64,000 nt of DNA from Escherichia coli (GTDB lineage: Bacteria; Pseudomonadota; Gammaproteobacteria; Enterobacterales; Enterobacteriaceae). Under the pieces are notes generated by a model. The model did no database searches and had not been told where the DNA came from. It worked only from the letters and a program-made list of their open reading frames with translations. This document shows, piece by piece, positions 8,179 to 45,537 of the stretch (its first letter is position 1; each line of letters opens with the position of its first letter). Position numbers and translations under genes: made by a program. The stretch lies in assembly GCF_036507355.1 (NCBI RefSeq), contig NZ_AP027877.1; one strand, written 5' to 3'.

Positions 8179-8179
8179 G

Positions 8180-9844: not shown

Positions 9845-10318
9845 ATGTTTGGGCTTTTTAAGAAAAAGGCAAAAGCGGAAAGGTGTTATGATGTAACACG
9901 CATTCAATACGAGCTGGTTGTAATGTCATCTAAGCTGATAAAAAAACAGACCGATATGTTCAAAGTAATAAAAGGGGAGCGAGAGGAGGCTTTAGGAGAC
10001 CCTTTATTATCAGCAGGGTATATAACGCCATGGGTCATTGGATATTGCACTGGTCTCCTGGATGCAGTGACTCAGACGGAGGCTAACAGGATGGCATTTA
10101 CATCAGAAATGCTTGGGCTTCTTTTTGCTGCAGTTTTCGGTGATGATAAGTCTCTTGAGGCCATGGGAACTTATATAGCCTGTAACGAAGCCTCCTCACC
10201 AGACCATGGATTTCATGTTACGTATGAGCTTTATATGTCTGGTCTAGCGAAAGCGTTTAATGAGGTATGTGAGGATAAACCTGCGATAGGACTTCTGAAC
10301 TATTTAATGCAGGATTGA
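9845..10318 (+). CDS. hypothetical protein (157 aa)
   Basis: ORF with no recognisable motifs; TTGACA at about 9810 upstream; last ORF before attR. Confidence 0.45.
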   Translation: MFGLFKKKAKAERCYDVTRIQYELVVMSSKLIKKQTDMFKVIKGEREEALGDPLLSAGYITPWVIGYCTGLLDAVTQTEANRMAFTSEMLGLLFAAVFGDDKSLEAMGTYIACNEASSPDHGFHVTYELYMSGLAKAFNEVCEDKPAIGLLNYLMQD

Positions 10319-10584
10319 AAATTTCCCACAAAAATCTCAGTGCCTATCTAACAGTAATAACCCTGCAACATTCCCCCGTATACCTCCAGAAGTTATCCAG
10401 AAGCCGAAGTAGGTATCCTGTCATGTATTTGAATCATCAAAGTTGTTCGTTCTATTCCTCTTTAGGGAATATTACAGCCCTACAGCCTTGACCAGAGATC
10501 ACTTGATGTGTAACCATAACTGTAACCAAAAGGATTCATCATCCTTTAAGAAACAATTGGTTAGTGAGTGATTGTCTTCGATAC

Positions 10585-10607
10585 TTCGATTCCCTTCGCC
10601 CGCTCCA
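10585..10607 (+). repeat. attR of the 4.2-kb element (also proximal att of the next islet)
   Basis: 23-bp copy of the glyU 3' end; flanking sequence diverges from the tRNA. Confidence 0.85.
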
Positions 10608-10771
10608 AACTCAAGTCTCCTGAAGTCTACCAAACTCAATTTTTCCTTGATAAATCAGCAGTTATAGCTTTCTATTAGTCTATTGAACTCAATTGTACTC
10701 CCCCAGGGTCAAGCTCAATGTGGGGGTATGGATGGGGGTATAATTGTACCCCCTGCTGAGAGGTACCCCCA

Positions 10772-11998: not shown

Positions 11999-12008
11999 GA
12001 AGGGGCAA

Positions 12009-12056
12009 GTTGAGCCTCTTCGCTGAGAAGAGGCTCAACGTGAACCTATTTTTTTG
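12009..12056 (+). terminator. intrinsic terminator after integrase
   Basis: GTTGAGCCTCTTC-GCTG-AGAAGAGGCTCAAC hairpin followed by a T7 run. Confidence 0.7.
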
Positions 12057-12153
12057 GGAGTTAATACTTTTTGCAATTTTTTTTTTCGTGCCGTTGGATG
12101 TAAAGATCTGTGGGGGTTAGGGAAGAAAATCATGCTATGTTAGTCTTTGAGGA

Positions 12154-13131
12154 GTGAGTCAAAATGTTATAACTTTTTCAAAGAGGCGTTACATCGTGAA
12201 AGTCGTTTTTAATGTTAATGGTAAAAAAGTTCCGCTCAAATCTCTGCAATATATAAGTAAAGCAAATCAACTCGAAGTTATGCGGAATTGGTTTTTTGAG
12301 AATTTTGAAGATCCCGCGAACTCTTGCCCGTATGAATCCCGTGAAGGCGGGTATGCTTACATTTATGGGGGCCCATACGAAGCAAGTGAAGAGTTGCAAG
12401 CGATGTTTGAAGGACACGTGAAATTTGATTATATCCAAGAATTAGTCAATGAATTACAAGAACAGTGCTATGAATGGTCTGGTAATTCAAATAATATTAA
12501 TGATTGGTACGATGAAGACTTGTATGATGCTGTTACATCTTCTGAACATCCTTTTTCTAAGTTCGTTGAAAGCATTGATGGAATAAAATTGCTGTCTAAA
12601 GGCGAATTTAAAGATAAACAAAAAGATCATCTGCTTAGCATCCTATATATTAATGTCATTACAGCCCTGGAAACACTTTATGTTGAGTTATTTATTAACT
12701 CTATAGATAAAAACGACTCATATCTTGCTGACTTTATAGAAAAAGGTAAGACGGAATTTAAGGTAAATAAAGGAATATTGGCTTTGCCATTCAAAGGAGA
12801 AACTATTGAAAACATGAGGGCGCAATTAATTAAGGTAATTAAAGAGCATTTGATTAGTGCAAGTTGGCATAGTACAAACAAAGTTGTAGGACGTTATAAA
12901 GCTACATTTGATATAAAAGTACATAAAGAGTGGCCAATAGATGTGATCGAAATAGCAACTCAAAAGCGTAATCATTTAGTCCATCGTGGCGGGAAAGATA
13001 AAGAAGGTAATTCGGTAGTGATTACTGAACAGGATTTAGAAATGTTGCTGGATCACGCACAATCTCTTGGAGAAAAATTGTTTGATAGCCTTGAGGTGGC
13101 ATTACAGAAAAAAGATGAGAATGAATTTTGA
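12154..13131 (+). CDS. hypothetical protein with C-terminal HEPN-like R-x4-H motif (putative abortive-infection protein)
   Basis: 325-aa ORF; C-terminal KRNHLVHRGG fits the HEPN R-x(4-6)-H signature; AT-rich gene inside an integrase islet. Confidence 0.5.
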   Translation: MSQNVITFSKRRYIVKVVFNVNGKKVPLKSLQYISKANQLEVMRNWFFENFEDPANSCPYESREGGYAYIYGGPYEASEELQAMFEGHVKFDYIQELVNELQEQCYEWSGNSNNINDWYDEDLYDAVTSSEHPFSKFVESIDGIKLLSKGEFKDKQKDHLLSILYINVITALETLYVELFINSIDKNDSYLADFIEKGKTEFKVNKGILALPFKGETIENMRAQLIKVIKEHLISASWHSTNKVVGRYKATFDIKVHKEWPIDVIEIATQKRNHLVHRGGKDKEGNSVVITEQDLEMLLDHAQSLGEKLFDSLEVALQKKDENEF

Positions 13132-13182
13132 GTCTCGGGGTAGGTTGATAGTGCTACCGATAACGAGCAAGCAAATGATACT

Positions 13183-13202
13183 CGGCAGGCAGTGCCTGCC
13201 GG
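13183..13202. terminator. bidirectional hairpin between convergent genes
   Basis: CCGGCAGGCA-G-TGCCTGCCGG perfect inverted repeat between the 13131 and 13207 stop codons. Confidence 0.55.
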
Positions 13203-13206
13203 AGGA

Positions 13207-14910
13207 TTACTTTTTACTTCCAAATTGAATGCCGAGAAGTTTATTCTCTGCTTTATCGCCACGTAGAGTAAGAACAATTTTTGATTTCAGTTCTAACATT
13301 TCGATTTCAGATAAAGTTGTTTCCATAGCATTAAAGTTTTCAGTGTTTAAAGATGCTATATATTGCTTTCCGCTTCGTTTTAATGACTGATTGACAAATG
13401 AGAACCATCTTGCGCGAACACCTGGATCTATATCAGCAAAAAGACGGTTATCATGCCATAGCATATCCATGGCATGGTTTTCACCACATGTAAATACTAA
13501 CCAGTCAAAGCATAATATCCTAGCATCATTGATCCCATCCGAATCATCACCCTCGATTTGGATGCTTAGATCATAACGAATTTTGTTGTCACCAGTATTA
13601 ACATCCAAAACTATTCCTGCTGGTACCCTTGGGTACATTATTTCTGCGAGCTCAGCAAAAATTTTATCGTATTCTGAAAGAGGATTTGTAGAAGCATAGT
13701 TTACCGCTAATCTGTCTTGTTCAACTTTTCGTTCTCTTAGATTTTGAGCTTTCTGTTGAAGGTTAATAGAAAAATTTAAATAATCATGTAACCTTTCTTT
13801 TTCTTCTTTAAATTCAGCTAGTTGTCTAGCTATGACTGCGTATTCATCAAATGCTTTCTTGCCTTGCAGGGATTCCAAATATGAATCACGTAATGCTGAA
13901 ATATCCTTAATGTCAATTTTAAGAGATTCAATTTCTAACAAAAGTTTTACTTTATCATTTTCAAGTCTTTTCTTTCTGTTAAAAGATAATGATTTGTGAA
14001 AATTTTCAACTGACTCAAAATGGGCCAATGTTTCTGGCTTGAAAATCTCTTGTAAGCCATTGTACAGTTCAAGAAGCTCTTCTCTTGAAATGTCAGGGTG
14101 TTCTAATAAAGTTTTTTCTATATTATTTACTTTAAATTCAGCTATATTTTTGTTTTTTTCAACTTCTCGTAATTTTATAGTTAAACTGTTTGTTTCATTC
14201 TCAATAGCTCTGTATTGCTCGTGAACTTGAAATGCATTCAGTTCATCCTGCAGTCTTGGGATCTCTCTTTCTAGCCACTCATAGCGTACTTTAGGTTGAG
14301 AGCCTGCTCTAAACATGTCTTTTAGAATATCATCGTCTTGCCAATTTTTTAGCGATTGACTTACTTTATCCAGCTCTTGCTTATTATTTCTTTTAGATAA
14401 TATTAAATTATGATCTATACCGAGAAGAAATGCGGTACGAAGCAATGCTTCAAAGTCTTGCTCCTTTTTTGTCCTAGTTGGACTGATGCAGTCATCTCTG
14501 GTATATCGCGAAAAACGCTTAAATAAAGATCTGAATGATAAATACGGAATGTTATTCTCAAGATTAAATATTCCTATTTTATCTAATAAATCTTTAAATG
14601 CTTTTAAAGATATTGTTTTGTCATTTAATAATAATTTTTTTCCATTGCCCGTTCTAGATATTAAGTACTCAACTCCATTATGAGAAAAAAGTAAAGAGAA
14701 CCACCAATCTGGAACTGCTGAAGTTAATTTTTTATCAGCATTAGCTCCTAAACAATGTTGAATGAGACCGAGAATAAGTGTCTTACCGACTCCGTTACTA
14801 CTGCCTTCTTTTTCTTTAGAGCTATCACCAATGATCAACGTTAGTCCTGTATCATTGAAATGCACTGGATGAAAAGTTGGCTGATCGCAAGTTAAGCGAA
14901 TTAACTTCAT
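13207..14910 (-). CDS. SMC/ABC-type P-loop ATPase with long coiled-coil region (putative anti-phage ATPase)
   Basis: 567-aa ORF; Walker A GSSNGVGKT near the N-terminus; long K/E-rich heptad-like middle; start codon abuts the stop of the upstream 101-aa gene. Confidence 0.65.
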   Translation of the reverse strand: MKLIRLTCDQPTFHPVHFNDTGLTLIIGDSSKEKEGSSNGVGKTLILGLIQHCLGANADKKLTSAVPDWWFSLLFSHNGVEYLISRTGNGKKLLLNDKTISLKAFKDLLDKIGIFNLENNIPYLSFRSLFKRFSRYTRDDCISPTRTKKEQDFEALLRTAFLLGIDHNLILSKRNNKQELDKVSQSLKNWQDDDILKDMFRAGSQPKVRYEWLEREIPRLQDELNAFQVHEQYRAIENETNSLTIKLREVEKNKNIAEFKVNNIEKTLLEHPDISREELLELYNGLQEIFKPETLAHFESVENFHKSLSFNRKKRLENDKVKLLLEIESLKIDIKDISALRDSYLESLQGKKAFDEYAVIARQLAEFKEEKERLHDYLNFSINLQQKAQNLRERKVEQDRLAVNYASTNPLSEYDKIFAELAEIMYPRVPAGIVLDVNTGDNKIRYDLSIQIEGDDSDGINDARILCFDWLVFTCGENHAMDMLWHDNRLFADIDPGVRARWFSFVNQSLKRSGKQYIASLNTENFNAMETTLSEIEMLELKSKIVLTLRGDKAENKLLGIQFGSKK

Positions 14911-15216
14911 TTAACTTTCCTTATTTTTTAATTTGTCATAATTGCAACAGATTGGCATTATTCTGTTTTCATTATCTAGCGTTATTTGTTTGATGCAAAA
15001 AAGAATGTCTACGGCAAGTATAAATTGTGTAAAAGAGGGCGTGATTATCGTTGATTTATTTTTCCGCTCTATTTTTGTCCATAGTTCTTCTATGGATACC
15101 GGTCCATCAATTAACGAACGGATGTATCCTGCAATCGCAATTAGGGAGTTACTAAACCTAACATGCTTATGTGGCAGAAGCATTGCTTGGATGTTCATAA
15201 GCATCACATGTCTCAA
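14911..15216 (-). CDS. small hypothetical protein coupled to the ATPase
   Basis: 101-aa ORF whose stop (14911-14913) is immediately followed by the ATPase ATG (14908-14910), suggesting translational coupling. Confidence 0.5.
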   Translation of the reverse strand: MRHVMLMNIQAMLLPHKHVRFSNSLIAIAGYIRSLIDGPVSIEELWTKIERKNKSTIITPSFTQFILAVDILFCIKQITLDNENRIMPICCNYDKLKNKES

Positions 15217-15390
15217 AATATTTAGCTAAAATTAACTCTGCAGCAAATCGATAACTCGCGACCGCACTTGTGGGAACTTGCGGGGGAAGGAGTTTATCTA
15301 TCATCCAAGTATATCTTAAATCTGCATAATTGTGGTTATCTTCAGTTATCGCCAATTTACTTTTTGCATAAGTATCTCTAACTTCTTGAG

Positions 15391-16173
15391 CTATAGTTTG
15401 TTCAAGACCACAAGACCATTATCAACAGAATCTAAAAATTCATTTATCAAATATAGTTGATAGCTAAAAGATTCCAGCCTGCTTTTTATTGGTTTTGTAA
15501 TACCATTTATTTTTATTTTATCTTCGAAGTCCGGGGCTGTTTCACTTAAAAAATTCATGGGTGAAGAAGATTTTTGTGCTAAAAAAGTCAATACTTCACC
15601 AACAGCTCGAGTATCTGTAAAGTCTAAATTAACCTCAGGAATGAAACCTACAATATCTTGCTTTTCACCCTCGGATAATGACATAAACTTTTGAAGGAGC
15701 TCCATCCCACCCATTGCACCTGCGTGATTAAGACTTTTACTGATTGCAAGTGTATTTAATGAAAGTCCAACAGGTGCTGGAATACCCTTGAAATAATCAT
15801 TCATTACAAAAGTATATTTTGATACTTTCCCCCATTTGGCGACTAATTTATCAAAGTCGCCAATCGATTTATTAACAGCTTCTAGCTCTTTGGTTTGATT
15901 TGAAGGTTTAGGTCCATAAACTTGGAAGTAATGAGCCTCATGAGCAATCCACCCATCATTCCCGCCATCTCCCCAGTTTCCCCAAGGGGAAACAGCTTGA
16001 AAGCCAGGAGTCGCGTATTGCATAACCTTCGAAAAAAGCGCCTGAAAACTGTCTCCCATACATTCATGTACTTTTAACCGAAAGAACTGTCTGTAGAGGT
16101 AATCTTGCTGTGTCGAACTCATTTTCCTCTCATCCATGATGAACACTTTTGATGATAATATCCTCTCATTCAT
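15391..16173 (-). CDS. hypothetical protein (260 aa), first gene of the ATPase operon, candidate effector
   Basis: ORF with WGNWGDGGNDGWIAHEAHYF segment; no confident family assignment. Confidence 0.5.
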   Translation of the reverse strand: MNERILSSKVFIMDERKMSSTQQDYLYRQFFRLKVHECMGDSFQALFSKVMQYATPGFQAVSPWGNWGDGGNDGWIAHEAHYFQVYGPKPSNQTKELEAVNKSIGDFDKLVAKWGKVSKYTFVMNDYFKGIPAPVGLSLNTLAISKSLNHAGAMGGMELLQKFMSLSEGEKQDIVGFIPEVNLDFTDTRAVGEVLTFLAQKSSSPMNFLSETAPDFEDKIKINGITKPIKSRLESFSYQLYLINEFLDSVDNGLVVLNKL

Positions 16174-16332
16174 TGTTGTAAACCTATGATTAGCAAAATT
16201 GGAGATGCTTTCACTTTAGAGTTGGTATCTAAAGGTTATAAATTATCAAAACAGGTTGTATAGATATCAAATTGAATACGATTTGACATATATGTTAATC
16301 TGATTAGTATCAGAGAAAAACAGGAGTCCTTA

Positions 16333-16683
16333 ATGTCGCTTATCCCCCTACAACTCTTCAAAAACCTCTCCGATGAAACCCGTTTGGGCATCGTGTTGCT
16401 GCTTAGAGAGATGGGAGAGCTGTGCGTGTGCGACCTTTGCACTGCGCTAGAACAGTCGCAGCCCAAGATCTCCCGTCATCTGGCAATGCTCCGGGAAAGT
16501 GGTCTATTGCTGGATCGTAAACAGGGCAAGTGGGTTCACTACCGCTTATCCCCGCATATTCCTTCCTGGGCCGCTCAGGTGATTGAGCAGGCCTGGTTAA
16601 GCCAACAGGACGATGTGCAGGCCATCGCCCGTAAGCTGGCATCAGCAAACTGCTCTGGTAGCGGTAAGGCTGTTTGTATCTAA
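16333..16683 (+). CDS. arsR: arsenical resistance operon repressor ArsR
   Basis: 116-aa ArsR/SmtB-family protein with metal-binding ELCVCDLC and HTH. Confidence 0.9.
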   Translation: MSLIPLQLFKNLSDETRLGIVLLLREMGELCVCDLCTALEQSQPKISRHLAMLRESGLLLDRKQGKWVHYRLSPHIPSWAAQVIEQAWLSQQDDVQAIARKLASANCSGSGKAVCI

Positions 16684-16730
16684 AAAATTTGCCTGAACAT
16701 ATATGATTTTTCGAATGCGAGGTGTTCAGA

Positions 16731-17093
16731 ATGAAAAAGTTAACGGTGTTTGACCCGGCAATGTGCTGCAGTACCGGCGTATGTGGCTCAGATGTCGATC
16801 AGGTTCTGGTTGATTTTTCTGCTGATGTGCAGTGGCTGAAAGGACGTGGCGTACAGGTTGAACGTTACAACCTGGCGCAGCAGCCCATGAGCTTTGTTCA
16901 AAATGAGAAAGCGAAAGCATTCCTCGAAGCATCTGGAGCAGAAGGGCTTCCGTTACTGCTGTTGGACGGTGAAACGGTGATGGCAGGGCGATACCCAAAA
17001 CGCGCTGAGCTGGCTCGCTGGTTCGGTATACCGCTGGAGAAGGTAGGTTTAGCTCCCACCAGCTGCTGTGGTGGTAATACTTCCTGTTGCTGA
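16731..17093 (+). CDS. arsD: arsenical metallochaperone ArsD
   Basis: ATG at 16731 with GAGGTG SD; MKKLTVFDPAMCCSTGVCG with conserved Cys12/13/18. Confidence 0.9.
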   Translation: MKKLTVFDPAMCCSTGVCGSDVDQVLVDFSADVQWLKGRGVQVERYNLAQQPMSFVQNEKAKAFLEASGAEGLPLLLLDGETVMAGRYPKRAELARWFGIPLEKVGLAPTSCCGGNTSCC

Positions 17094-17110
17094 GTATGTC
17101 AGGAGGACAT

Positions 17111-18862
17111 ATGAAATTCTTACAGAATATCCCGCCTTACCTGTTTTTTACCGGTAAGGGAGGTGTAGGAAAAACTTCTATTTCCTGCGCGACGGCAATC
17201 CGCCTTGCTGAACAGGGTAAGCGGGTTTTGCTGGTCAGTACCGATCCGGCCTCCAATGTCGGCCAGGTATTCGATCAGGCTATCGGTAACACCATTCGCC
17301 CTGTGGCAGCAGTTCCTGAACTTTCCGCTCTGGAAATCGACCCGCAGGAAGCCGCCAAACAATATCGTTCCAGAATCGTTGCTCCTATCAAAGATCTTTT
17401 GCCTGATGACGTTGTTAACAGTATCAGCGAGCAGCTTTCAGGAGCCTGTACCACTGAGATTGCGGCGTTTGATGAGTTCACCGGCTTATTGACAGACGCT
17501 TCCCTGCTGACCCGCTTCGATCACATCATTTTTGATACAGCGCCGACGGGCCACACGATTCGCCTTCTCCAGCTTCCCGGTGCCTGGAGTAACTTCATTG
17601 AGAGTAACCCGGATGGTGCTTCCTGTCTTGGCCCAATGGCCGGACTGGAAAAGCAGCGTGAGCAGTATGCTCATGCGGTAGAGGCGTTATCCGATCCTGA
17701 ACGTACCCGCCTGGTTCTGGTTGCAAGACTGCAAAAATCCACGCTGCAGGAAGTCGCCCGCACCCATGAAGAACTCGCCGCAATTGGCCTGAAAAACCAG
17801 TACCTGGTGATTAATGGTGTGCTGCCTAAAGCCGAAGCTGAACATGACGCCCTGGCCGCTGCGATATGGCAACGTGAACAGGAGGCACTGGCAAATCTTC
17901 CTGCCGGTTTATCCGGGTTGCCGACAGATACCCTATTACTACAGCCAGTCAATATGGTTGGTGTTTCAGCATTGAAGGGACTGCTGGATACCCGTTCTGA
18001 GGCATTACCGCTCCCGGTAACGAACATCCAGTACACGCCTGAAAACATATCGCTCTCTGGCCTGGTCAATGATATCGCCCGCAGTGAACACGGCCTGATT
18101 ATGCTGATGGGCAAAGGTGGCGTGGGTAAAACCACGATGGCTGCTGCCATCGCCGTAAGGCTGGCGGATATGGGATTTGATGTCCATCTCACCACCTCAG
18201 ATCCCGCTGCACATCTCAGTACCACGCTGAACGGTAGCCTTAATAACCTGCAGGTCAGCAGGATTAATCCACACGAAGAAACCGAACGCTATCGCCAGCA
18301 TGTTCTTGAGACGAAGGGTAAAGATCTGGACGAAGCAGGGAAACGGCTACTGGAAGAGGATTTGCGCTCTCCCTGTACTGAAGAAATTGCCGTGTTTCAG
18401 GCCTTTTCCAGGGTGATTCGTGAAGCGGGTAAACGGTTTGTTGTCATAGATACCGCCCCTACCGGACACACGCTGTTGCTGCTGGATGCGACCGGGGCTT
18501 ACCACCGAGAGATTGCCAAAAAAATGGGGAGTAAAGGTCATTTTACTACCCCAATGATGCAGCTTCAGGATCCGGATAGAACCAAAGTTCTGCTTGTTAC
18601 GCTTCCTGAAACCACACCGGTTCTGGAAGTGGCAAACCTGCAGGCTGACCTTGAAAGAGCGGGGATTCATCCGTGGGGCTGGATTATCAATAACAGCCTT
18701 TCCATTGCGGATACGCGTTCTCCGTTGCTTTGCCAGCGCGCCCGGCAGGAACGGCCTCAGATTGAGGCTGTTAAGAATCAGCATGCTGAGCGTATAGCGC
18801 TTGTTCCGGTGCTGGCGTCAGAGCCCGCCGGTATTAAAAAGCTCAGAGAGTTGATGAGTTAA
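17111..18862 (+). CDS. arsA: arsenite-transporting ATPase ArsA
   Basis: ATG at 17111 after AGGAGG; two nucleotide-binding halves each with GKGGVGKT; about 583 aa. Confidence 0.92.
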
Positions 18863-18909
18863 TTTTTTGGCATATACAGGGCGGCAAAGTCGCCCTGTCA
18901 GGAGGTTTT

Positions 18910-20199
18910 ATGTTACTGGCAGGCGCTATTTTTGTCCTGACCATTGTTTTGGTTATCTGGCAACCAAAGGGATTAGGGATCGGCTGGAGTGCAATGCTGG
19001 GCGCGGGACTGGCTCTGATATCAGGCGTTGTGCATGTGGGCGATATTCCGGTGGTGTGGAATATCGTCTGGAACGCGACGGCGACCTTTATTGCCGTAAT
19101 TATTATCAGCCTGCTGCTTGATGAGTCCGGTTTTTTCGAATGGGCAGCGCTGCACGTTTCCCGCTGGGGTAACGGTCGTGGACGTTTGCTCTTTACGTAT
19201 ATCGTTCTGCTCGGTGCGGCGGTGGCGGCACTGTTTGCCAACGATGGTGCGGCACTTATTCTGACGCCGATAGTCATCGCCATGCTGCTGGCATTAGGGT
19301 TCAGCAAAGGCACCACGCTGGCATTCGTCATGGCTGCCGGTTTTATTGCCGATACGGCCAGCCTGCCGCTTATCGTGTCGAACCTGGTGAATATAGTCTC
19401 GGCGGACTTCTTTGGACTGGGCTTCACTGAGTATGCGTCGGTAATGGTGCCGGTGGATATTGCCGCTATTATCGCCACGCTGGTGATGCTGCATCTGTTC
19501 TTCCGCAAAGATATTCCACCGACTTACGACCTGGCTCTCCTGAAAGCACCGGCAAAGGCGATTAAAGATCTGGCAACCTTCAGAACCGGCTGGATAGTTT
19601 TAATTCTTCTGCTGGTTGGGTTCTTTGTCCTCGAGCCGCTCGGTATTCCCGTTAGCGCGATTGCGGCTGTTGGAGCTGTGATCCTGTTTGCTGTAGCTAA
19701 ACGAGGCCATGCCATTAACACCGGCAAAGTGCTGCGCGGTGCGCCATGGCAGATCGTCATCTTCTCATTGGGGATGTACCTGGTGGTCTACGGTCTGCGC
19801 AACGCCGGGCTAACCGAATACCTTTCAGGTGTGCTGAACGTACTGGCGTATAAAGGACTCTGGGCCGCAACGCTGGGTACTGGTTTCCTGACGGCTTTCC
19901 TCTCTTCCATCATGAACAACATGCCTACCGTGCTGGTTGGCGCTCTCTCGATCGATGGAAGCACCGCATCCGGCGTTATTAAAGAGGCGATGATCTACGC
20001 CAACGTGATTGGCTGCGATCTGGGGCCGAAAATTACACCTATTGGTAGCCTGGCAACGCTGCTCTGGCTGCATGTACTTTCACAGAAGAATATGACCATC
20101 ACCTGGGGATACTATTTCCGCACCGGGATCGTCATGACTCTGCCTGTGCTGTTTGTAACGCTGGCCGCGCTGGCGCTACGTCTCTCTTTCACTTTGTAA
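18910..20199 (+). CDS. arsB: arsenite efflux pump ArsB
   Basis: 429-aa polytopic membrane protein, ArsB family. Confidence 0.92.
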
Positions 20200-20211
20200 T
20201 GAGATACTGAT

Positions 20212-20637
20212 ATGAGCAACATCACCATTTATCACAACCCGGCCTGCGGCACGTCGCGTAATACGCTGGAGATGATCCGCAACAGTGGTACTGAACCGAC
20301 CGTAATTCTTTACCTTGAGACTCCACCGTCTCGCGATGAGCTGGTCAAACTCATTGCAGATATGGGCATTTCAGTCCGGGCTTTGCTGCGCAAAAACGTC
20401 GAGCCTTATGAAGAACTGGGGCTTGCAGAAGATAAGTTTACTGACGATCAGTTAATCGGCTATATGCTGCAGCATCCGATCCTGATTAACCGCCCGATTG
20501 TGGTGACACCGTTGGGAACGCGCCTGTGCCGTCCTTCCGAAGTGGTACTGGATATTCTTCCGGATGCGCAAAAAGGCGCATTTGCAAAGGAAGACGGCGA
20601 GAAAGTCGTTGATGAAACAGGTAAACGATTGAAATAA
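20212..20637 (+). CDS. arsC: arsenate reductase (glutaredoxin-coupled) ArsC
   Basis: 141-aa ORF MSNITIYHNPACGTSRNTLEMIR with catalytic Cys12. Confidence 0.92.
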   Translation: MSNITIYHNPACGTSRNTLEMIRNSGTEPTVILYLETPPSRDELVKLIADMGISVRALLRKNVEPYEELGLAEDKFTDDQLIGYMLQHPILINRPIVVTPLGTRLCRPSEVVLDILPDAQKGAFAKEDGEKVVDETGKRLK

Positions 20638-20643
20638 ATATAA

Positions 20644-20661
20644 AGGGGGCTGATGCCCCCT
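20644..20661. terminator. hairpin between convergent arsC and acetyltransferase genes
   Basis: AGGGGGC-TGAT-GCCCCCT stem-loop. Confidence 0.5.
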
Positions 20662-20671
20662 TATTCCTGCC

Positions 20672-21208
20672 TCAGAGCATACGATCTGAATCTTCTGGCA
20701 GAGTACTATTCCCTTCACCAAGTTTCATTTGCAGCAAAACCGTGTCAAGCCAGCGGCCATGCTTGAAACCAATGTCCTTTAATGTACCTATTTCAGTAAA
20801 TCCTGCGCGGATATGAAGCGCTACAGAAGCGACGTTAGCGCTGTCACCCACAACAGCAATCATCTGGCGATAGCCTTCGGACTCGGCCCATTTTAATGCA
20901 TGATCGAGCAGTGCTTTTCCGACGCCCTGTCGCTGATAAGCCGAATCAATATATATCGAATTTTCGACCGTATACCGATAGGCATGGCGTTCGCGGTAAC
21001 GGGAAATATAACAGTAGCCGATGACCGTATCGCCATGCAGAGCGACATACCATGGGAATCCTCGAGACTGAATGCTCCTCAGTCGGTTAAGCATTTCCTG
21101 CGTATCCGGAGGTTCGGTTTCGAAGCTACCTGTACCATGCAGAACATGGTGAGCATAGATATTGCGTATCGCGGTAATGTGCTGTTCTTCAGCATTAATA
21201 ATGTGCAT
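20672..21208 (-). CDS. GNAT N-acetyltransferase, phosphinothricin/arsinothricin acetyltransferase-like (ArsN-like)
   Basis: 178-aa ORF with GNAT acetyl-CoA motif QRQGVGKALL; PAT/Bar-like; located in an ars cluster, where ArsN1-type enzymes occur. Confidence 0.6.
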   Translation of the reverse strand: MHIINAEEQHITAIRNIYAHHVLHGTGSFETEPPDTQEMLNRLRSIQSRGFPWYVALHGDTVIGYCYISRYRERHAYRYTVENSIYIDSAYQRQGVGKALLDHALKWAESEGYRQMIAVVGDSANVASVALHIRAGFTEIGTLKDIGFKHGRWLDTVLLQMKLGEGNSTLPEDSDRML

Positions 21209-21332
21209 CGTGTTACTCCAGTAATGGTGTTTTACAAACTACCGGAATTCGCGACAGCAGGTTAAGTACTTAAACTTATAACCTGTATAAGCAAAAGTTT
21301 GGCTGCAGTAAATGGGGCCGTAGCCCCATCTA

Positions 21333-22034
21333 TTAGCCTGCCATTTTTGCCAGCAGAGCCGCACCCACTGGTTCTTCGTTCTGCAGTGGCGTTAATGCAA
21401 TACGCTTTGCAAACTGCTCTGCAACGTCATTTATCAGCGGCAGTTCGCGACTGGCTCGGGTTACCAGGAACGGTGAGGACGGTTTCGCAGCAGCCAGACT
21501 GCTATTGATTACCCATGCCCATGGTTCAATTTCAGCCCGACGCAAATCCTGTTGCAGGTTTGCCGCTTCCAGCACCGGTGTCGTTTCGGCAAGCGTCACG
21601 ATAATCACCTTCGTCTTCTCCGGGTCATCGGCCAGAGACTGCTGGGGACGCCGGTTAAGGTCGGATTCTTCAATCAACCACCGCTCATCTTCAGGTAATG
21701 CCTGCAATGTTTCAGGCAGGCAAATATCCAGCGTTGAGATTGCATCAGTGGATGGATCAGTTAATGGGGCATCATCTTCCAGATCAACGAATTCCCTGGT
21801 GGTGCGGTACTCATCAATCAGCAGATTCCTCGCCGCCCGATACAGCCAGGCTCGCGGATTCTCCATTTCGCAGAAACTGTCTGAATGAGCGCGGGCACGC
21901 AGGAATAGCTCTTGTAGAAGGTCTGCTGCTTTTTCGCTATCACCTGTCTTCTATGTCAGAAAGCGAGAGAGTTCGGCTTCATGTTGCTGCCAGAACACGC
22001 TCATGCAGTTGTTGAATGCCGTTACATCACTCAT
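21333..22034 (-). pseudogene. degenerate ECF sigma factor-like gene with in-frame amber stop, fused to a 3' fragment of arsA
   Basis: Minus-strand frame from ATG 22034 reads MSDVTAFNNCMSVFWQQHEAELSRFLT-stop (TAG = plus 21951-21953), then ...ENPRAWLYRAARNLLIDEYR (ECF region 2-like), ending in KVIIVTLAETTPVLEAANLQQDLRRAEIEPWAWVINSSL, which parallels the ArsA C-terminus. Confidence 0.6.
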
Positions 22035-22042
22035 ACCAGCCC

Positions 22043-22586
22043 TCAAATTTTGCTCTGATTAACCCGCCGTGAAAGTTCTTCTGCAGATTCTTTTCGTTCG
22101 CTGTAGCGATCAACGAGATAGGCTGAGTTACCTCGGGTCAGCAGAGTAAATTTCACCAGTTCTTCCATCACATCCACGATTCGGTCGTAATAAGACGACG
22201 GTTTCATTCGTCCATCTTCATCAAATTCCTGCCAGGCTTTTGCCACAGAGGACTGATTCGGGATGGTGATCATCCGCATCCAGCGGCCAAGAATTCGCAT
22301 CTGGTTTACGGCATTGAAAGACTGAGAGCCACCGCAGACCTGCATAACGGCCAGTGTCTTACCCTGCGAAGGGCGAACAGCGCCTTCTGATAACGGTATC
22401 CAATCAATCTGGGCTTTCATGATGCCGGTCATCGCACCATGGCGTTCAGGGGAACACCACACCATCCCTTCGGACCAACGAACCAGCTCGCGCAGTTCCA
22501 TGACTTTAGGATGTGAGTCAGGCGCATCATCAGGAAGAGGCAAGCCTGAGGGATTGAAGATCCGAACCTCTTCGCCCATGGCTGCA
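22043..22586 (-). pseudogene. arsH: arsH (NADPH-dependent FMN reductase), 5'-truncated by IS insertion
   Basis: ArsH-like sequence from [17 protein letters not shown] onward; the first ~42 codons of the track ORF (22587-22714) lie inside the IS element. Confidence 0.7.
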
Positions 22587-22604
22587 TGAATCGCCACGGA
22601 TAAT

Positions 22605-23417
22605 CTAGACACTTCCGAGCCGTTGATAATACTGGTTTTCATATTCTGTCGGTGACATCTGATCGCTGGAACCATGCCGACGCTTACTGTTATAAAACAT
22701 TTCGATGTAATCAAAAATATCGCTGCGGGCTTCTTCCCGCGTTCCGTAGATCTTTTTCTTTATCCGTTCGCGTTTCAACAACTGGAAAAAGCTTTCTGCA
22801 ACCGCATTATCATGGCAGTTACCGCGACGGCTCATGCTGCCCTCCAGGCCGTGTGATTTCAGGAACGACTGCCACTCATGGCTTGTGTACTGACTGCCCT
22901 GATCCGAATGAACCAGCACCTGTTTTTGGGGATTACGGCGCCATACAGCCATCAGCAGTGCGTTCAGGACAATGTCCTTTGTCATCCGGGATTGCATGGA
23001 CCAGCCGATAATTTTGCGTGAGAACAGATCAACAACCACGGCAAGATACAGCCAGCCTTCGTGGGTCCTGATGTAGGTTATGTCCGTTACCCAACGCTTA
23101 TCCGGAGCATCCGGATTGAACTGTCGCTGGAGCCTGTTGGGCGACACGATACTGGCCTCGCCTTTACGTGCCCGCGGGCTCCGGTATCCGACCTGAGCCT
23201 TTATCCCGACACGTTTCATCAGTCGCCAGACTCTGTTCACTCCGCACTGTTGCCCGCTGTCCCGCAGATCCAGATGGATTTTGCGATAACCATAGACGCA
23301 TCCCGATTCCAGCCAGAACTGTTTAATCTGCCCTGTCAGCCTCAGGTCTGCCTGATGGCGTTGTGAATGCGGCTGCTGAAGCCAGGCGTAAAAACCACTG
23401 GGATGAACATCCAGCAC
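22605..23417 (-). CDS. IS3-family transposase OrfB (DDE integrase domain)
   Basis: DDE catalytic region (WVTDITY...[10 protein letters not shown]...[11 protein letters not shown]); the true frame probably extends upstream to overlap orfA for -1 frameshift fusion. Confidence 0.85.
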
Positions 23418-23473
23418 CCGACAGAGCAGGCGAACAGGCCAGCAACAGGTGTTGTCACGGATAAAGGCGTACC

Positions 23474-23758
23474 TCAGTCGGACAGCTTTGCGAAGTACGC
23501 CGCGGCTTTTTTTAATATGTCCCGTTCGTCGGTAACCCGCTTCAGCTCTTTCTGGAGACGGCGGATCTCGGCCTGAGCATCTGACTGTTCTTTATTAGCG
23601 GAAGAATCCGGACCGTACTTCTTTATCCAGGCGTAAAGGCTGTGGGTGGTGATATCGAGACGTGTTGCAACGCTGGCAACAGAATAACCGCGATCAACAA
23701 CCTGTTTGACTGCTTCAATTTTAAACTCTTCGGGATAACGCTTACCGCTCATGGGCAC
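23474..23758 (-). CDS. IS3-family transposase OrfA (HTH)
   Basis: 94-aa ORF with HTH and leucine-zipper-like C-terminus (RRLQKELKRVTDERDILKKAAAYFA). Confidence 0.85.
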   Translation of the reverse strand: MPMSGKRYPEEFKIEAVKQVVDRGYSVASVATRLDITTHSLYAWIKKYGPDSSANKEQSDAQAEIRRLQKELKRVTDERDILKKAAAYFAKLSD

Positions 23759-23812
23759 CTCTCTTTAAGCCATCTTAAATGACTCTGAGGTGTCTGTTAA
23801 ACCCGTGGCGAT

Positions 23813-24790
23813 TCACTCTAATGCTTTTTGAGCAGCAAGTTCAAGTTCACTTTTTCCATGAAGTGCCAAAGACATATGGCATTCCGCTAGAAGGCAATAA
23901 CATTCTGTTTTTAGCGTCTGTATATCACTTTTATTTTGTAATCCATCAAATATAGTCATGGCCCTGTAAATGCTTTCAGGGGTGAACTCGTAAAGTTCTT
24001 TCTTTCCGGCTAACATTTCATCTGATAAATAATGATTCTTATATCCTTGGTCCTGCTTAGCTAATCTTACAGATCGTTCTGGTTTATGTACCGTTTGAAG
24101 GATATTATCTATAATAAATTGTGATGTATTATGTAGTTCATCAACAGGGAGATGATTACTGGCGATGAGGAAAAGGTTTTTAGCGTCGATCAACTCAATG
24201 TATAAAGTGTTCACTGCATTATTCTGGTTTATTCTTCCTGTAACGAAATAATCTGGCTTGAATCTGCTCAAGAATGAATTTTGAGATATGTGGTCATTAC
24301 AAAAATTTGTCGCAGCCATCGGATAGGTATAGAGACCATCGATTTTTTTATTTGAAATGATTTGTACTAATTCCTGATTAAGTATTAATGGATCCAGTGT
24401 ATTCAATGAAGTGGTGAAAGGGAATATAGCTATGGAATAGTCTGAAGTATTATCTTCATTAATTTTAGTTTTGAAAACCTGCCCGCTGAAACGATAACCT
24501 TTCCGGTAGATTGTTTCTATGCAGCGATCATAGCCAATTTTTTCAAAAATGCAGCGCAAAGAATAGATACATCTTGTCAGGGACTCGTCACTAACAATAA
24601 TATTTTTCCATACTGATTCGATGATCATATCTTTCAGTACAACATGACCAGCGGATTCAAGTAATACTATTAATACACCTAACTCTTTCGGTGGAATATA
24701 AACTTGCTCATTTCCTTGAGTAAGAATTCCATCTTCCGTGAGCGTTAATCCCTCAAGAAAATGATATGAGAATTTATTTTCTAAGTCCAT
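23813..24790 (-). pseudogene. ygeH: ygeH-like HilA/ToxR-type regulator (ETT2), 3'-truncated by the IS3-family element
   Basis: 325 aa with N-terminal winged-helix region; the reading frame stops on the TGA that is the first triplet of the IS terminus; K-12 YgeH is about 458 aa (recall). Confidence 0.65.
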
Positions 24791-37188: not shown

Positions 37189-38110
37189 CTGACGACAGAA
37201 TAGCGTCAAGAGAAGTGACCAGTTTCGGTAACCCCGCTTGTAAATGCTCACTAAACGCCTGCACCAGCGCTGATGACGGGCGATGCAGAGGGCGGATCAG
37301 GCTGACGGTGAACGGAACCGCAATACTGAACCGCCGCACCACTAAACCGCTTGCCGCATAATCCAGTGCGGTGAGCGGGTTAACCACCGAAACACCTACC
37401 CCCGCCCGTACCATTGCGCACACTGACGCGGCGCTGTGGGTTTCTACGATCATGCGTCGTTTAACCTGATGTTCAGTAAACAATTGATCCAGCAACTGGC
37501 GATAGCTGTCAGTACGGGAAAGGCTGATGTAGTTCTCACTGTGAAAATCTTCTGGCGTTAATATCTCTTTTGTCGTCAGCGGATGACCCGGAGGTAACAC
37601 ACACACTTCATCTAAAGAGAGTAATTCGGTTCGTTCTGTTCCCGCAGGCGTATGGAGCGTCTCAGTGAGTCCTAAATCATGACGCTGGGCCGAGAGCCAC
37701 TCTTCAAGTAGCGGTGATTCCTGGGGCACGATATTTAAGCTGACATCGGGATAACGTGCCAGAAAGAGTTGCAGGAGCTGCGGTAAAAAAGATTGCGAAA
37801 AGACCGGCAGGCAGGCAATAGACAGTTCTCCCTGGCGAAACTCGCGCAGACTTTCTGCAGCGCTGACAATTCGATCCAGTCCGTACCAGGATCGTTGCAC
37901 TTCTTCAAACAGACGCAGTCCTTGCACGGTAGGATGTAATCGTCCACGTACGCGCTCAAACAATTTCAGCCCGATCACCTTCTCAAAGCGCGCCAGTTCG
38001 CGGCTGACGGTTGGCTGTGAGGTGTGTAGCAGGTGTGCTGCCTCAGTCAGGCTTCCGGCGGTCATTACCGCATGAAAAATTTCAATATGACGTAAGTTAA
38101 CGGCGGCCAT
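37175..38110 (-). CDS. lysR: LysR transcriptional activator of lysA
   Basis: 311-aa LTTR with N-terminal HTH; divergent from lysA. Confidence 0.92.
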
Positions 38111-38231
38111 TAGCGCTCTCTCGCAATCCGGTAATCCATATCATTTTTGCATAGACTCGACATAAATCGATATTTTTTATTCTTTTTATGATGTGGCGTA
38201 ATCATAAAAAAGCACTTATCTGGAGTTTGTT

Positions 38232-39494
38232 ATGCCACATTCACTGTTCAGCACCGATACCGATCTCACCGCCGAAAATCTGCTGCGTTTGCCCGCTGAA
38301 TTTGGCTGCCCGGTGTGGGTCTACGATGCGCAAATTATTCGTCGGCAGATTGCAGCGCTGAAACAGTTTGATGTGGTGCGCTTCGCGCAGAAAGCCTGTT
38401 CCAATATTCATATTTTGCGCTTAATGCGCGAGCAGGGCGTGAAAGTGGATTCCGTCTCATTGGGGGAAATCGAACGCGCGTTGGCGGCGGGATATAATCC
38501 GCAGACGCATCCCGATGACATTGTTTTTACTGCGGATGTTATCGATCAGGCGACCCTCGAGCGCGTCAGTGAATTGCAAATTCCGGTGAATGCGGGTTCT
38601 GTTGATATGCTCGACCAACTGGGCCAGGTTTCGCCAGGGCATCGGGTATGGCTGCGCGTTAACCCGGGGTTTGGTCACGGACATAGCCAAAAAACCAATA
38701 CCGGTGGCGAAAACAGCAAGCACGGTATCTGGTACACCGATCTGCCCGCCGCACTGGACGTGATACAACGTCATCATCTGCAGCTGGTCGGCATTCACAT
38801 GCACATTGGTTCTGGCGTTGATTATGCCCATCTGGAACAGGTGTGTGGTGCGATGGTGCGTCAGGTCCTCGAATTCGGTCAGGATTTACAGGCTATTTCT
38901 GCGGGCGGTGGGCTTTCTGTTCCTTATCAACAGGGTGAAGAGGCGGTTGATACCGAACATTATTATGGTCTGTGGAATGCCGCGCGTGAGCAAATTGCCC
39001 GCCATTTGGGCCACCCTGTGAAACTGGAAATTGAACCGGGTCGCTTCCTGGTAGCGCAGTCTGGCGTATTAATTACTCAGGTGCGGAGCGTCAAACAAAT
39101 GGGTAGCCGCCACTTTGTGCTTGTTGATGCCGGGTTCAACGATCTGATGCGCCCGGCAATGTACGGTAGTTACCACCATATCAGTGCTCTGGCAGCTGAT
39201 GGTCGTTCTCTGGAACACGCGCCAACGGTGGAAACCGTCGTCGCCGGGCCGTTATGTGAATCGGGCGATGTCTTTACCCAGCAGGAAGGGGGAAATGTCG
39301 AAACCCGCGCCTTGCCGGAAGTGAAGGCGGGTGATTATCTGGTACTGCATGATACAGGGGCATATGGCGCATCAATGTCATCCAACTACAACAGCCGTCC
39401 GCTGTTACCAGAAGTTCTGTTTGATAATGGCCAGGCGCGGTTGATTCGCCGTCGCCAGACCATCGAAGAATTACTGGCGCTGGAATTGCTTTAA
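38232..39494 (+). CDS. lysA: diaminopimelate decarboxylase
   Basis: 420-aa PLP-dependent fold-III decarboxylase. Confidence 0.93.
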   Translation: MPHSLFSTDTDLTAENLLRLPAEFGCPVWVYDAQIIRRQIAALKQFDVVRFAQKACSNIHILRLMREQGVKVDSVSLGEIERALAAGYNPQTHPDDIVFTADVIDQATLERVSELQIPVNAGSVDMLDQLGQVSPGHRVWLRVNPGFGHGHSQKTNTGGENSKHGIWYTDLPAALDVIQRHHLQLVGIHMHIGSGVDYAHLEQVCGAMVRQVLEFGQDLQAISAGGGLSVPYQQGEEAVDTEHYYGLWNAAREQIARHLGHPVKLEIEPGRFLVAQSGVLITQVRSVKQMGSRHFVLVDAGFNDLMRPAMYGSYHHISALAADGRSLEHAPTVETVVAGPLCESGDVFTQQEGGNVETRALPEVKAGDYLVLHDTGAYGASMSSNYNSRPLLPEVLFDNGQARLIRRRQTIEELLALELL

Positions 39495-39500
39495 CTGCGG

Positions 39501-40532
39501 TTAGTCGCTGGTTGCATGATGACTTGCCTCCAGCGACGGAGTTGACACTGAATGGCGACGTACCAGCGTCGGACTAAAGACATTAGTGATTTCCGGGAGA
39601 GGGCGATTATCCGCCAGCGCCAAAGCCAGTTCGGCAGCCTGGGTCGCCATCGTCACGATTGGATAACGCACGGTGGTCAGGCGCGGTCGCACATAGCGTG
39701 ACACCAGCACATCATCAAAGCCAATTAACGAAATCTCACCTGGTACATCAATACCATTATCATTGAGCACGCCCATCGCACCCGCCGCCATTGAATCGTT
39801 ATAACAGGCTACCGCAGTGAAATTTCTTCCTCGTCCCAAAAGCTCGGTCATTGCCTGTTCGCCGCCGCTTTCGTCTGGTTCGCCAAATGTCACCAGCCGG
39901 TCATTGGCCGCAATACCACTTTCAGCAAGGGCATCGTAATACCCTTGCAGACGATCTTCGGCGTCAGAAATAGAGTGGTTAGAGCACAGATAACCAATGC
40001 GGGTATGACCTTGCTGAATTAAATGACGCGTTGCCAGCCAGGCACCGTAACGATCGTCCAGAGCAATACAACGGTTTTCAAAGCCAGGCAGGATACGGTT
40101 GATCAGCACCATACCGGGCATTTGTTTCATTAATGAGGCTAAATCGGCATCCGGGATCATTTTGGCATGGACGACCAACGCAGCACAGCGATGGCGGATC
40201 AGTTGCTCAATAGCCTGACGCTCTTTTTGTTCGTTGTGGTAACCGTTGCCAATCAATAAGAAATTACCGGTGTGATAAGCCACCTGTTCGACCGCTTTCA
40301 CCATTGCACCGAAAAACGGATCGGAAACATCACCAACGACCAGACCGACTGTTTCAGTGGTCTGCTGTGCCAGCGCACGGGCGTTGGCGTTCGGGTGATA
40401 GCTAAGAGACTCCATTGCACTATGCACAGCCAGCCGGGACGCTTCGCTGGCTTTGGGTGAATTATTAATGACGCGGGAAACGGTGGCGACTGAAACGCCT
40501 GCCAGTCGGGCTACATCCTTTATGGTCGCCAT
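39501..40532 (-). CDS. galR: galactose operon repressor GalR (LacI family)
   Basis: 343 aa; N-terminal HTH MATIKDVARLAGVSVATVSRVIN. Confidence 0.92.
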   Translation of the reverse strand: MATIKDVARLAGVSVATVSRVINNSPKASEASRLAVHSAMESLSYHPNANARALAQQTTETVGLVVGDVSDPFFGAMVKAVEQVAYHTGNFLLIGNGYHNEQKERQAIEQLIRHRCAALVVHAKMIPDADLASLMKQMPGMVLINRILPGFENRCIALDDRYGAWLATRHLIQQGHTRIGYLCSNHSISDAEDRLQGYYDALAESGIAANDRLVTFGEPDESGGEQAMTELLGRGRNFTAVACYNDSMAAGAMGVLNDNGIDVPGEISLIGFDDVLVSRYVRPRLTTVRYPIVTMATQAAELALALADNRPLPEITNVFSPTLVRRHSVSTPSLEASHHATSD

Positions 40533-40746
40533 GAAAATACCTTAGTGGGTAAACGCTTACATTCTTTCAGTGTTACGGAAAACGCCCGTTGGTTCAAGGG
40601 GCGGTGTGTTTTCATCAGTGGGAATGTGAGCCAAACGCAAATAAGTAAGACAAAAAAAGAGATTGCAAACCTTTGGTTACACTTTGCGAAACGCTGTTGC
40701 GATTGACCGCTGGTGGCGTTTGGCTTCAGGTTGCTAAAGTGGTGAT

Positions 40747-40828
40747 CCCAGAGGTATTGATAGGTGAAGTCAACTTCGGGTTGAGCACATGAATTACACC
40801 AGCCTGCGCAGATGCGCAGGTTTTTTTT
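40747..40828 (+). ncRNA. omrB: small regulatory RNA OmrB
   Basis: CCCAGAGGTATTGATAGGTGAAGTCAACTTCGGGTTGAGC... ending in the CCTGCGCAGATGCGCAGG-T9 terminator; galR-aas intergenic location. Confidence 0.85.
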
Positions 40829-40943
40829 TGCCGGTCATCAATCTGTAACAGTAACCGACAATTTACACACCTCGTTGCATTTCCCTTCATTCCTTTGCGT
40901 TTTCTCGCTGGCGAAGAGTCGTCGTGCAGACCACAATCAAGAT

Positions 40944-41031
40944 CCCAGAGGTATTGATTGGTGAGATTATTCGGTACGCTCTTCGTACCCTGTCTCTTGC
41001 ACCAACCTGCGCGGATGCGCAGGTTTTTTTT
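40944..41031 (+). ncRNA. omrA: small regulatory RNA OmrA
   Basis: CCCAGAGGTATTGATTGGTGAGATTATTCGGTACGCTCTTCGTACC... with CCTGCGCGGATGCGCAGG-T8 terminator; tandem with omrB and sharing the 5' seed. Confidence 0.85.
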
Positions 41032-41097
41032 CGCACCTAATTTACTGTCGCTCGCGTTCTTTATCTCGTGTAATCTCCCTCCATTCGCTTTTACTGA

Positions 41098-44464
<3,367 letters not shown>

Positions 44465-44467
44465 TAT

Positions 44468-44494
44468 TTAACGCCGGTTTTAACCGGCGTTAAT
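44468..44494. terminator. bidirectional terminator between lplT and tas
   Basis: TTAACGCCGGTT-TTAACCGGCGTTAA palindrome. Confidence 0.6.
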
Positions 44495-44496
44495 CT

Positions 44497-45537
44497 TTAT
44501 GGTGCCGGATAAGTATAAACCTGATGTACCGCTTCAATTTCAGCTAATACGTCTTCGCTTAACTCCAGATGTAAACTTTCGACGTTAGTTTTCAGCTGCT
44601 CCATCGTGGTTGCGCCCAGCAGAGTGCTGGCAACAAACGGTTGACGGCGTACAAAAGCGAGCGCCATCTGAGCAGGATCCAGTCCATGACGTCTGGCAAT
44701 ATCAACATACGCCGCGACGGCTTTTTGCGTTTGCTCACCGCTATAGCGGGTGAACCGACTAAAGAGCGTATTACGTGCGCCAGCGGGTTTTGCACCGTTG
44801 AGATATTTCCCGGTCAGCGTGCCGAAACCCAGGCACGAATAGGCCAGCAGTTCGACCCCTTCATACTGGCTGACTTCTGCCAGACCTACTTCAAAACTGC
44901 GGTTTAACAGACTGTAAGGGTTCTGAATGGTGACAATACGCGGCAGATCGTGTTTGTCCGCCAGATGCAGGTAGCGCATTACGCCAAATGCAGTTTCGTT
45001 CGACACGCCGATATAACGAATTTTTCCCGCTCGTTGGTACTCTGCCAGTGCGTCCAGCGTATCCAGCAGCGAAACCGCAGGCGCAGAATCTGTCCAGCTA
45101 TAACCGAGTTTGCCGAAGCAGTTGGTTGGGCGCTGCGGCCAGTGCACCTGATAAAGATCGAGGTAATCAGTCTGCAGACGCTTGAGGCTGTCATGCAGCG
45201 CTTCGCGGATATTCTTCCGATCCAGCGCCTGATCCGGGCGGATGCCCTTGTCATTATTGCGCGACGGTCCGCTCACTTTGGAGGCGATAATTAACTTTTC
45301 GCGGCTGCCATGTTTCGCCAGCCAGTTGCCGACGTAGGTTTCGGTTAACCCTTGCGTTTCGGGGCGCGGAGGTACTGGGTACATTTCGGCAACGTCGATA
45401 AGGTTAATGCCCTGAGCGACGGCATAGTCGAGTTGTGCGTGGGCGTCGGCTTCGCTGTTCTGTTCACCAAACGTCATCGTGCCAAGCCCCAGCGTGCTGA
45501 CTTCCAGCGAACTGTGGGGTATACGGTGATATTGCAT
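44497..45537 (-). CDS. tas: aldo-keto reductase Tas
   Basis: 346-aa AKR-family protein. Confidence 0.9.
   Translation of the reverse strand: MQYHRIPHSSLEVSTLGLGTMTFGEQNSEADAHAQLDYAVAQGINLIDVAEMYPVPPRPETQGLTETYVGNWLAKHGSREKLIIASKVSGPSRNNDKGIRPDQALDRKNIREALHDSLKRLQTDYLDLYQVHWPQRPTNCFGKLGYSWTDSAPAVSLLDTLDALAEYQRAGKIRYIGVSNETAFGVMRYLHLADKHDLPRIVTIQNPYSLLNRSFEVGLAEVSQYEGVELLAYSCLGFGTLTGKYLNGAKPAGARNTLFSRFTRYSGEQTQKAVAAYVDIARRHGLDPAQMALAFVRRQPFVASTLLGATTMEQLKTNVESLHLELSEDVLAEIEAVHQVYTYPAP

Follow-up and report, generated by a model that had tools for sequence, protein, structure and literature searches.

The 586-bp region between galR and aas in this Escherichia coli chromosome is one that protein-centred pipelines will treat as empty, and the question it raises is whether the two similar units of about 85 nt that lie within it are genes and, if so, which ones. 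A reading of the raw letters, referred to below as the earlier note, had named them as the tandem small RNAs (sRNAs) OmrB and OmrA. OmrA and OmrB have been under study since 2001–2006. Here, the locus is analysed within a stretch of 64,000 nucleotides (64 kb), which we call the window. The region almost certainly comprises two independent, tandem and co-oriented genes for the paralogous, trans-acting sRNAs OmrB and OmrA of E. coli.

The two units are omrB and omrA

A scan of the whole window with Rfam 15 returns three matches above the gathering thresholds, of which one is a tRNA elsewhere and two are RF00079 (OmrA-B), located on the + strand at 40747–40828 and 40944–41031 with 86.1 and 96.6 bits, respectively, against a gathering score of 40. 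Both RF00079 matches span model positions 1–87 of 87 and are not truncated. The earlier note had offered this very covariance-model scan as the way to refute it, and both units match the family. Additionally, the galR-proximal unit is 100% identical to omrB of K-12 MG1655 (b4445, 82 nt) and the aas-proximal unit is 100% identical to omrA (b4444, 88 nt), which confirms the order, OmrB then OmrA, that had been read from the letters. The curated MG1655 record annotates omrA and omrB between aas and galR, and the gene order galR(−), omrB(+), omrA(+), aas(+) is the same in K-12 and in the window, where LysA and LplT open reading frames (ORFs) lie beyond the flanking GalR and Aas (Table 1). A gap of 87 nt (41032–41118) separates the end of omrA from the start codon of aas on the same strand.

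Over the galR–aas intergenic region (40533–41118, 586 nt), the window differs from K-12 at four places in all. Specifically, two substitutions and one extra base lie near galR (40602, 40605 and 40617), and the fourth difference is a ninth T in the OmrB T-run (40821–40829), which is T8 in K-12; from about 40618 onwards, the region is K-12 sequence except for this extra T. These are the only differences from the K-12 omrB/omrA locus, and they lie outside the genes and promoters. OmrA and OmrB of K-12 MG1655 (RygA/RygB, SraE) have the same sequence, length, order, orientation, flanks, promoters, terminators, predicted fold and ompR complementarity as the units described here. Judged by sequence, the locus is omrB and omrA proper rather than merely OmrA/OmrB-like; it is already known, and its sRNA genes offer nothing novel. 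Of 5426 complete E. coli genomes, 5423 contain the intergenic region, and 5082 best matches reach 99% identity or more.

Table 1. Coordinates of the omrB–omrA locus and its neighbours in the window
Feature	Position	Strand	Description	Support
galR	39501..40532	−	divergent upstream neighbour	NCBIfam NF008002, 734.5 bits; F2_81 and K-12 annotation
omrB promoter	40668..40746	+	−10 TAAAGT at 40735–40740 (−12T); −35 poor (GGTGGC)	identical to K-12
omrB promoter conserved blocks	TTACACTTTGC 40677–40687; CTGTTGCGATTG 40694–40705	+		16-locus alignment
omrB sRNA gene	40747..40828	+	82 nt; T-run one base longer, to 40829	RF00079, K-12 b4445 identity, fold
OmrB 5′ seed / conserved 5′ end CCCAGAGGTATTGATAGGTGA	40747..40767	+	20 of 21 nt identical to OmrA; nt 1–9 pair with ompR mRNA (predicted)	
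OmrB intrinsic terminator	40801..40829	+	9-pair stem, AGAT loop, T9 run	
omrA promoter	40844..40943	+	−10 CACAAT at 40932–40937 (−12C)	identical to K-12
omrA promoter conserved blocks	TGTAACA 40844–40850; GTTGCA 40874–40879; TCATTCCTTTGCGTTTTC 40887–40904; CTGG 40908–40911	+		16-locus alignment
omrA sRNA gene	40944..41031	+	88 nt	RF00079, K-12 b4444 identity, fold
OmrA 5′ seed / conserved 5′ end CCCAGAGGTATTGATTGGTGA	40944..40964	+	20 of 21 nt identical to OmrB; nt 1–9 pair with ompR mRNA (predicted)	
OmrA intrinsic terminator	41004..41031	+	9-pair stem, GGAT loop, T8 run	
aas	41119..43278	+	co-directional downstream neighbour	NCBIfam NF005959, 1526 bits

Both sRNAs share their ends and a predicted fold

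Exactly two copies of the 15-mer CCCAGAGGTATTGAT exist in the 64-kb window, both on the + strand, one beginning at 40747 and the other at 40944, so that the common 5′ motif reported before lies at the first base of units measuring 82 and 88 nt. When up to two mismatches are allowed, 0.06 matches are expected by chance, and two copies were reached in none of 100 shuffles. The similarity of the 5′ ends takes in 20 of the first 21 nt and also the 3 nt upstream of +1 (repeat D2, 24 nt, 96%). The two units start 197 nt apart, and the repeat finder gives a spacing of 197–203 nt.

The 3′ ends are equally alike in layout. In each unit, the motif CCTGCGC[A/G]GATGCGCAGG followed by a T-run forms the close, beginning 56–62 nt after the 5′ 15-mer copy, and the window holds two matches to it against 0.00 expected. 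The motifs lie at 40803–40826 (T9 at 40821–40829) and 41006–41029 (T8 at 41024–41031), where the earlier note had placed its terminators, and a terminator scan called both terminator-like on the + strand, each having a stem of 9 pairs of which 6 are G-C. A 3′ repeat of 38 nt with 89% identity (D1) is common to the units. Over their full length, omrB and omrA are identical in 59 of 88 aligned columns, which agrees with the published identity of 68% between OmrA and OmrB (PMC13425233).

Folded alone, each RNA gives a stable structure, in which a GGUG/CACC closing helix encloses a central hairpin and the terminator comes after it. The minimum free energy (MFE) is −26.6 kcal/mol for OmrB (z −2.9), with only nt 1–6 unpaired in the MFE fold, and −29.5 kcal/mol for OmrA (z −2.7), with the first 15 nt unpaired. 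The conserved 5′ end CCCAGAGGUAUUGAU is exact in both units and is unpaired in the consensus of the RF00079 model. The RF00079 alignment, the folds and the terminator scan together place the GGUG...CACC closing helix, the central hairpin and a 3′ Rho-independent terminator with a poly-U tail in both units. By analogy with other Hfq-dependent sRNAs, the OmrB terminator is probably also an Hfq-binding 3′ module.

Omr units and their layout recur across Enterobacterales

Homologues were retrieved by scanning one genome per species (298 Gb) for the exact 15-mer CCCAGAGGTATTGAT, which gave at least 142 matches. About half of those listed are chance occurrences in unrelated phyla, without a terminator, and many such matches are to be expected at 298 Gb. 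They were removed by demanding the rest of the unit, which left at least 69 units with 62 distinct sequences among the matches listed; all 69 Omr-type units kept from these listed matches come from Enterobacterales. Owing to the exact retrieval, the set cannot speak for seed conservation: that the 5′ 15-mer and GGTG never vary in it follows in part from how it was assembled, and diverged copies are undercounted.

Covariation was assessed in 60 sequences, namely the two window units and 58 distinct homologues. In all of them, the terminator helix is 100% paired, and 3 of its 8 pairs have changed on both sides, the double compensatory changes being U-A to C-G, G-C to A-U and C-G to U-A. Its covariation score was reached by no shuffle, and slid registers are only 18–53% paired. 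Compensatory variants of the terminator stem in other Enterobacterales include CCTACGC/GCGTAGG, CCCACGC/GCGTGGG and CCTGCGT/ACGCAGG. The GGTG/CACC helix is invariant across the 60 sequences and hence uninformative for covariation. The central hairpins of OmrA type and OmrB type do not align, and the joint alignment tests the closing helix and the terminator only; in separate A-type and B-type alignments, a single doubly changed pair appears, in the OmrA central stem. For the central hairpin, the individual folds are the main support, and its covariation is weak.

The Omr homologues of Citrobacter, Enterobacter, Kluyvera, Kosakonia, Pluralibacter, Mangrovibacter and Edwardsiella resemble the window units in their 5′ end, in GGTG...CACC and in their position upstream of aas, and those of Serratia, Pantoea, Erwinia, Pectobacterium, Dickeya and others have the same features. 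Like the window units, the Enterobacterales homologues carry a terminator with a GAT-containing loop and a T-run, whereas their central bodies have diverged. Tandem Omr pairs 188–275 nt apart are found in Escherichia, Citrobacter, Enterobacter, Kosakonia, Kluyvera, Pluralibacter, Mangrovibacter, Edwardsiella and Serratia, and in some Enterobacterales species the fetched locus shows a single Omr unit, a lower bound given that retrieval took exact 15-mer matches only. In Pantoea, Omr-type units lie about 2 kb apart and not about 200 nt (2747–2822 and 4789–4879 in locus L030; 647–722 and 2680–2770 in locus L059), and one of the units is unusually short (76 nt) while the other has the CCCACGC/GCGTGGG terminator variant.

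Among the fetched loci, galR is divergent upstream in most of those that reach far enough, and aas is downstream in almost all; no aas was found in the two Dickeya Omr loci long enough to show it. The layout galR(−)/Omr(+)/aas(+) recurs across Enterobacterales, reproducing the published picture (PMC13425233; PMC12692685).

The promoters are conserved, gene-specific and identical to K-12

Promoter positions were set from the annotated +1 (40747 and 40944), −10 hexamers at −12 to −7, published mutations and cross-genus conservation. For the last of these, the 105 nt located 5′ of the first and second units were aligned for 16 loci. The PomrB blocks are nearly invariant in these loci, from Escherichia to Serratia and Edwardsiella, and the PomrA blocks are likewise conserved across the 16 loci but differ from those of PomrB, each set being gene-specific.

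Single positions with published roles are found in the window as well. According to section 2.2 of PMC12692685, −12C makes omrA sigma-S-dependent, whereas omrB, with −12T, is not; the −12T of omrB and the −12C of omrA in the window match this determinant exactly. The PomrB mutations T-75C and A-68G abolish activation by RstA and impair activation by OmpR (PMC13425233), and T-75 and A-68 correspond to T 40672 and A 40679 in the window, which provides an independent check on the start site. OmpR-P is a direct activator of both omr promoters in vitro, and these respond to the total OmpR level (PMC5175337). That the sRNAs are OmpR-regulated, as claimed earlier, is upheld from this literature only, and the window promoters are base-for-base those of K-12. 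A sigma-70 consensus scan gave no + strand promoter upstream of either unit, an outcome expected for activator-dependent promoters with a poor −35 and not positive evidence for them.

Box B1 of PomrB is needed for RstA-dependent activation, and the factor that binds it is not identified in published work (PMC13425233). On the basis of its conservation and position, the 12-nt block CTGTTGCGATTG (40694–40705; −53 to −42 of omrB) appears to be this box. It is conceivable, but in our estimate unlikely, that an omrB-specific regulator yet to be discovered binds there and that the block is not simply a further OmpR half-site; the literature has already raised the question of the box-B1 regulator, which did not originate here. 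A perfect 10-nt inverted repeat, AGCCAAACGC / GCGTTTGGCT, at 40629–40638 and 40716–40725 with 77 nt between its arms, brackets the omrB upstream region and could be due to chance.

Alternative readings of the locus

The alternative that survives best is that omrB and omrA are present but silent or altered in this strain, through the ninth T or through changes elsewhere, for example in ompR. The OmrB T-run is one T longer than in K-12, the galR side carries the three differences at 40602, 40605 and 40617, and ompR and hfq lie outside the window. However, a T9 run is also found in E. albertii and many other genera, the three galR-side changes are over 125 nt away from the omrB +1 on its upstream side, and the promoters and transcribed sequences are otherwise identical to K-12. 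A silent or altered locus is thus very improbable.

Still less credible is the proposal that the units are generic intrinsic terminators, or an attenuation leader for the aas-lplT operon, and not free-standing sRNAs. Such a role would fit the short distance of 87 nt from omrA to aas, which lies downstream in the same orientation, and sub-threshold Leu_leader matches do cover both units, yet their 27.8 and 23.2 bits are far under the gathering score of 50 and compare with 86–97 bits for OmrA-B. With galR divergent, the terminators have no co-directional upstream gene to end, and in K-12 both annotation and experiment establish the units as independent transcription units (PMC13425233). Moreover, the gap between omrA and aas has its own −10-like element, conserved across genera as TGTAAT, TATAAT or TATAGT. 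A low-threshold Rfam scan of 38000–44500 returned, besides OmrA-B, only the Leu_leader matches and SgrS (15.2 bits against 37), all located on these units, and both families were rejected as similarity driven by the terminators.

In an alignment of the gap from 22 loci, the −10-like element at 41069–41074 (TGTAAT) is preceded by CTCGT/CTCAT, reads TATAAT, TATAGT or TAGTAT in other genera and is conserved across Enterobacterales. It is a likely aas-lplT promoter, located directly after the omrA terminator. Read-through from omrA as the driver of aas-lplT, which was also considered, is unnecessary given this conserved element.

Finally, a reading of the repeats as coding sequence, for one or several small proteins, has a negligible probability. 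ORFs of 38–78 aa do overlap the units, for example 40812–40964 (+), 40726–40890 (−) and 40887–41036 (−), but homologous units range from 72 to 110 nt with spacings of 188, 191, 192, 197–203, 220 and 275 nt, and the indel lengths are not divisible by three. The conserved parts are mainly the 5′ end, which does not look like an ORF, and the terminator; the body changes freely but keeps a hairpin, and the RF00079 covariance model accounts for the whole unit.

Seed pairing and proposed mode of action

According to PMC2588501, OmrA and OmrB use their 5′ end to pair with the ompT, cirA and ompR mRNAs close to the translation initiation region, with a dependence on Hfq and RNase E; every target tested escapes control when the 5′ end is mutated, and regulation of ompR returns with compensatory mutations. 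Further targets include csgD, flhDC, flgM, dgcM and btuB (published abstracts and the review PMC12692685). In RNA duplex predictions with the K-12 target sequence, nt 1–9 (CCCAGAGGU) pair with ACCUUUGGG at −19 to −11 of the ompR mRNA, overlapping the Shine-Dalgarno sequence. Against the ompR Shine-Dalgarno region, the 5′ 21-mer reaches −19.0 kcal/mol for OmrB and −16.9 kcal/mol for OmrA, and 3 of 500 and 15 of 500 shuffled 21-mers, respectively, pair with ompR equally well, ompR being the one target checked. The predicted pairing agrees with the proof by compensatory mutations in PMC2588501.

Following the literature, OmpR would drive both genes, joined by sigma-S for omrA and, in multicopy, by RstA for omrB. 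Transcription of each gene would end at its own intrinsic terminator, and the resulting RNAs, as described in published work, would bind Hfq. Their single-stranded and nearly identical 5′ end (CCCAGAGGU...) would pair with short complementary segments of many mRNAs (ompT, cirA, fecA, fepA, csgD, flhDC, flgM, dgcM and btuB), located at the ribosome-binding site or close to it, blocking translation initiation and leading to RNase E-dependent decay. The outcome would be a remodelling of the outer membrane, iron uptake, motility and biofilm programmes, and pairing with the ompR-envZ mRNA would exert negative feedback on the activator of OmrA and OmrB themselves. Expression, control by OmpR, sigma-S and RstA, Hfq dependence and target repression are drawn from the literature on the identical K-12 sequence.

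Sibling Hfq-dependent sRNAs, such as Qrr1-5, PrrF1/2 and RyhB/IsrE (PMC4211561), have a seed and overlapping targets in common and diverged promoters, and integrate different signals. They are other families with other seeds and regulators, and their likeness to OmrA/OmrB is one of functional analogy only, without membership.

Other features of the window

The window corresponds to the recJ...recB stretch of the E. coli chromosome. Between lysS (2975–4492) and actS (5481–6260) sits an IS1 copy (4536–5303) with 91% identity to IS1F of F2_81, and across it recJ-prfB-lysS is joined directly to actS-glyU. In K-12, the lysS side is presumably separated from actS-glyU by the idi...xdh region, which is missing in the window. 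The whole arrangement at 1–6412 is common to 160 complete E. coli genomes.

The tRNA-Gly(CCC) gene (glyU, 6339–6412) is followed by an integrative element of about 4.2 kb (6413–10604), which carries a 543-aa tyrosine integrase (6547–8178, Pfam PF00589) and a weak KilA-N-like ORF (9158–9721); the 20 nt at its far end (10585–10604) directly repeat the 3′ end of the tRNA. This element is without counterpart in F2_81 or NZ_OZ197100.1, where an integrase directly adjoins the tRNA. A second element stands in tandem at the same tRNA-Gly(CCC) site, from 10605 to about 23800, with an integrase at 10772–11998, an ORF resembling HEPN/RES-N-terminal proteins at 12154–13131 and a DUF2326 protein at 13207–14910. 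Together with DUF2326, genes of this element annotated as 'ABC-three component system' in the closest record form a candidate defence module, after which come arsRDABC, a GNAT gene and arsH. The segment 10585–22584 matches NZ_OZ197100.1 with 99.9% identity. Most of the ETT2 type III secretion cluster of F2_81 (eivF, sctC, sctN, sctT, prgH-like and others, from tRNA-Gly to ygeH) is absent from the window, and the islands at 6413–23815 occupy its place (1442–23825 of the F2_81 locus L124); colinearity with F2_81 is back at 23816, inside ygeH, with 98.9% identity.

Annotation of the locus and its meaning

The best 12 matching PGAP-annotated RefSeq E. coli records (NZ_CP043542.1 and others) have no feature under the galR–aas region, and among the records examined, omrA and omrB are annotated only in the curated K-12 record. 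This bears out the remark in the earlier note that the pair is easily missed by protein-centred annotation. Biologically, the copy described here brings no gain, being identical to the reference, and its value is practical: the PGAP-annotated records pass over two conserved regulatory genes, and the raw sequence alone sufficed to recognise a known sRNA locus, including its gene order and boundaries.
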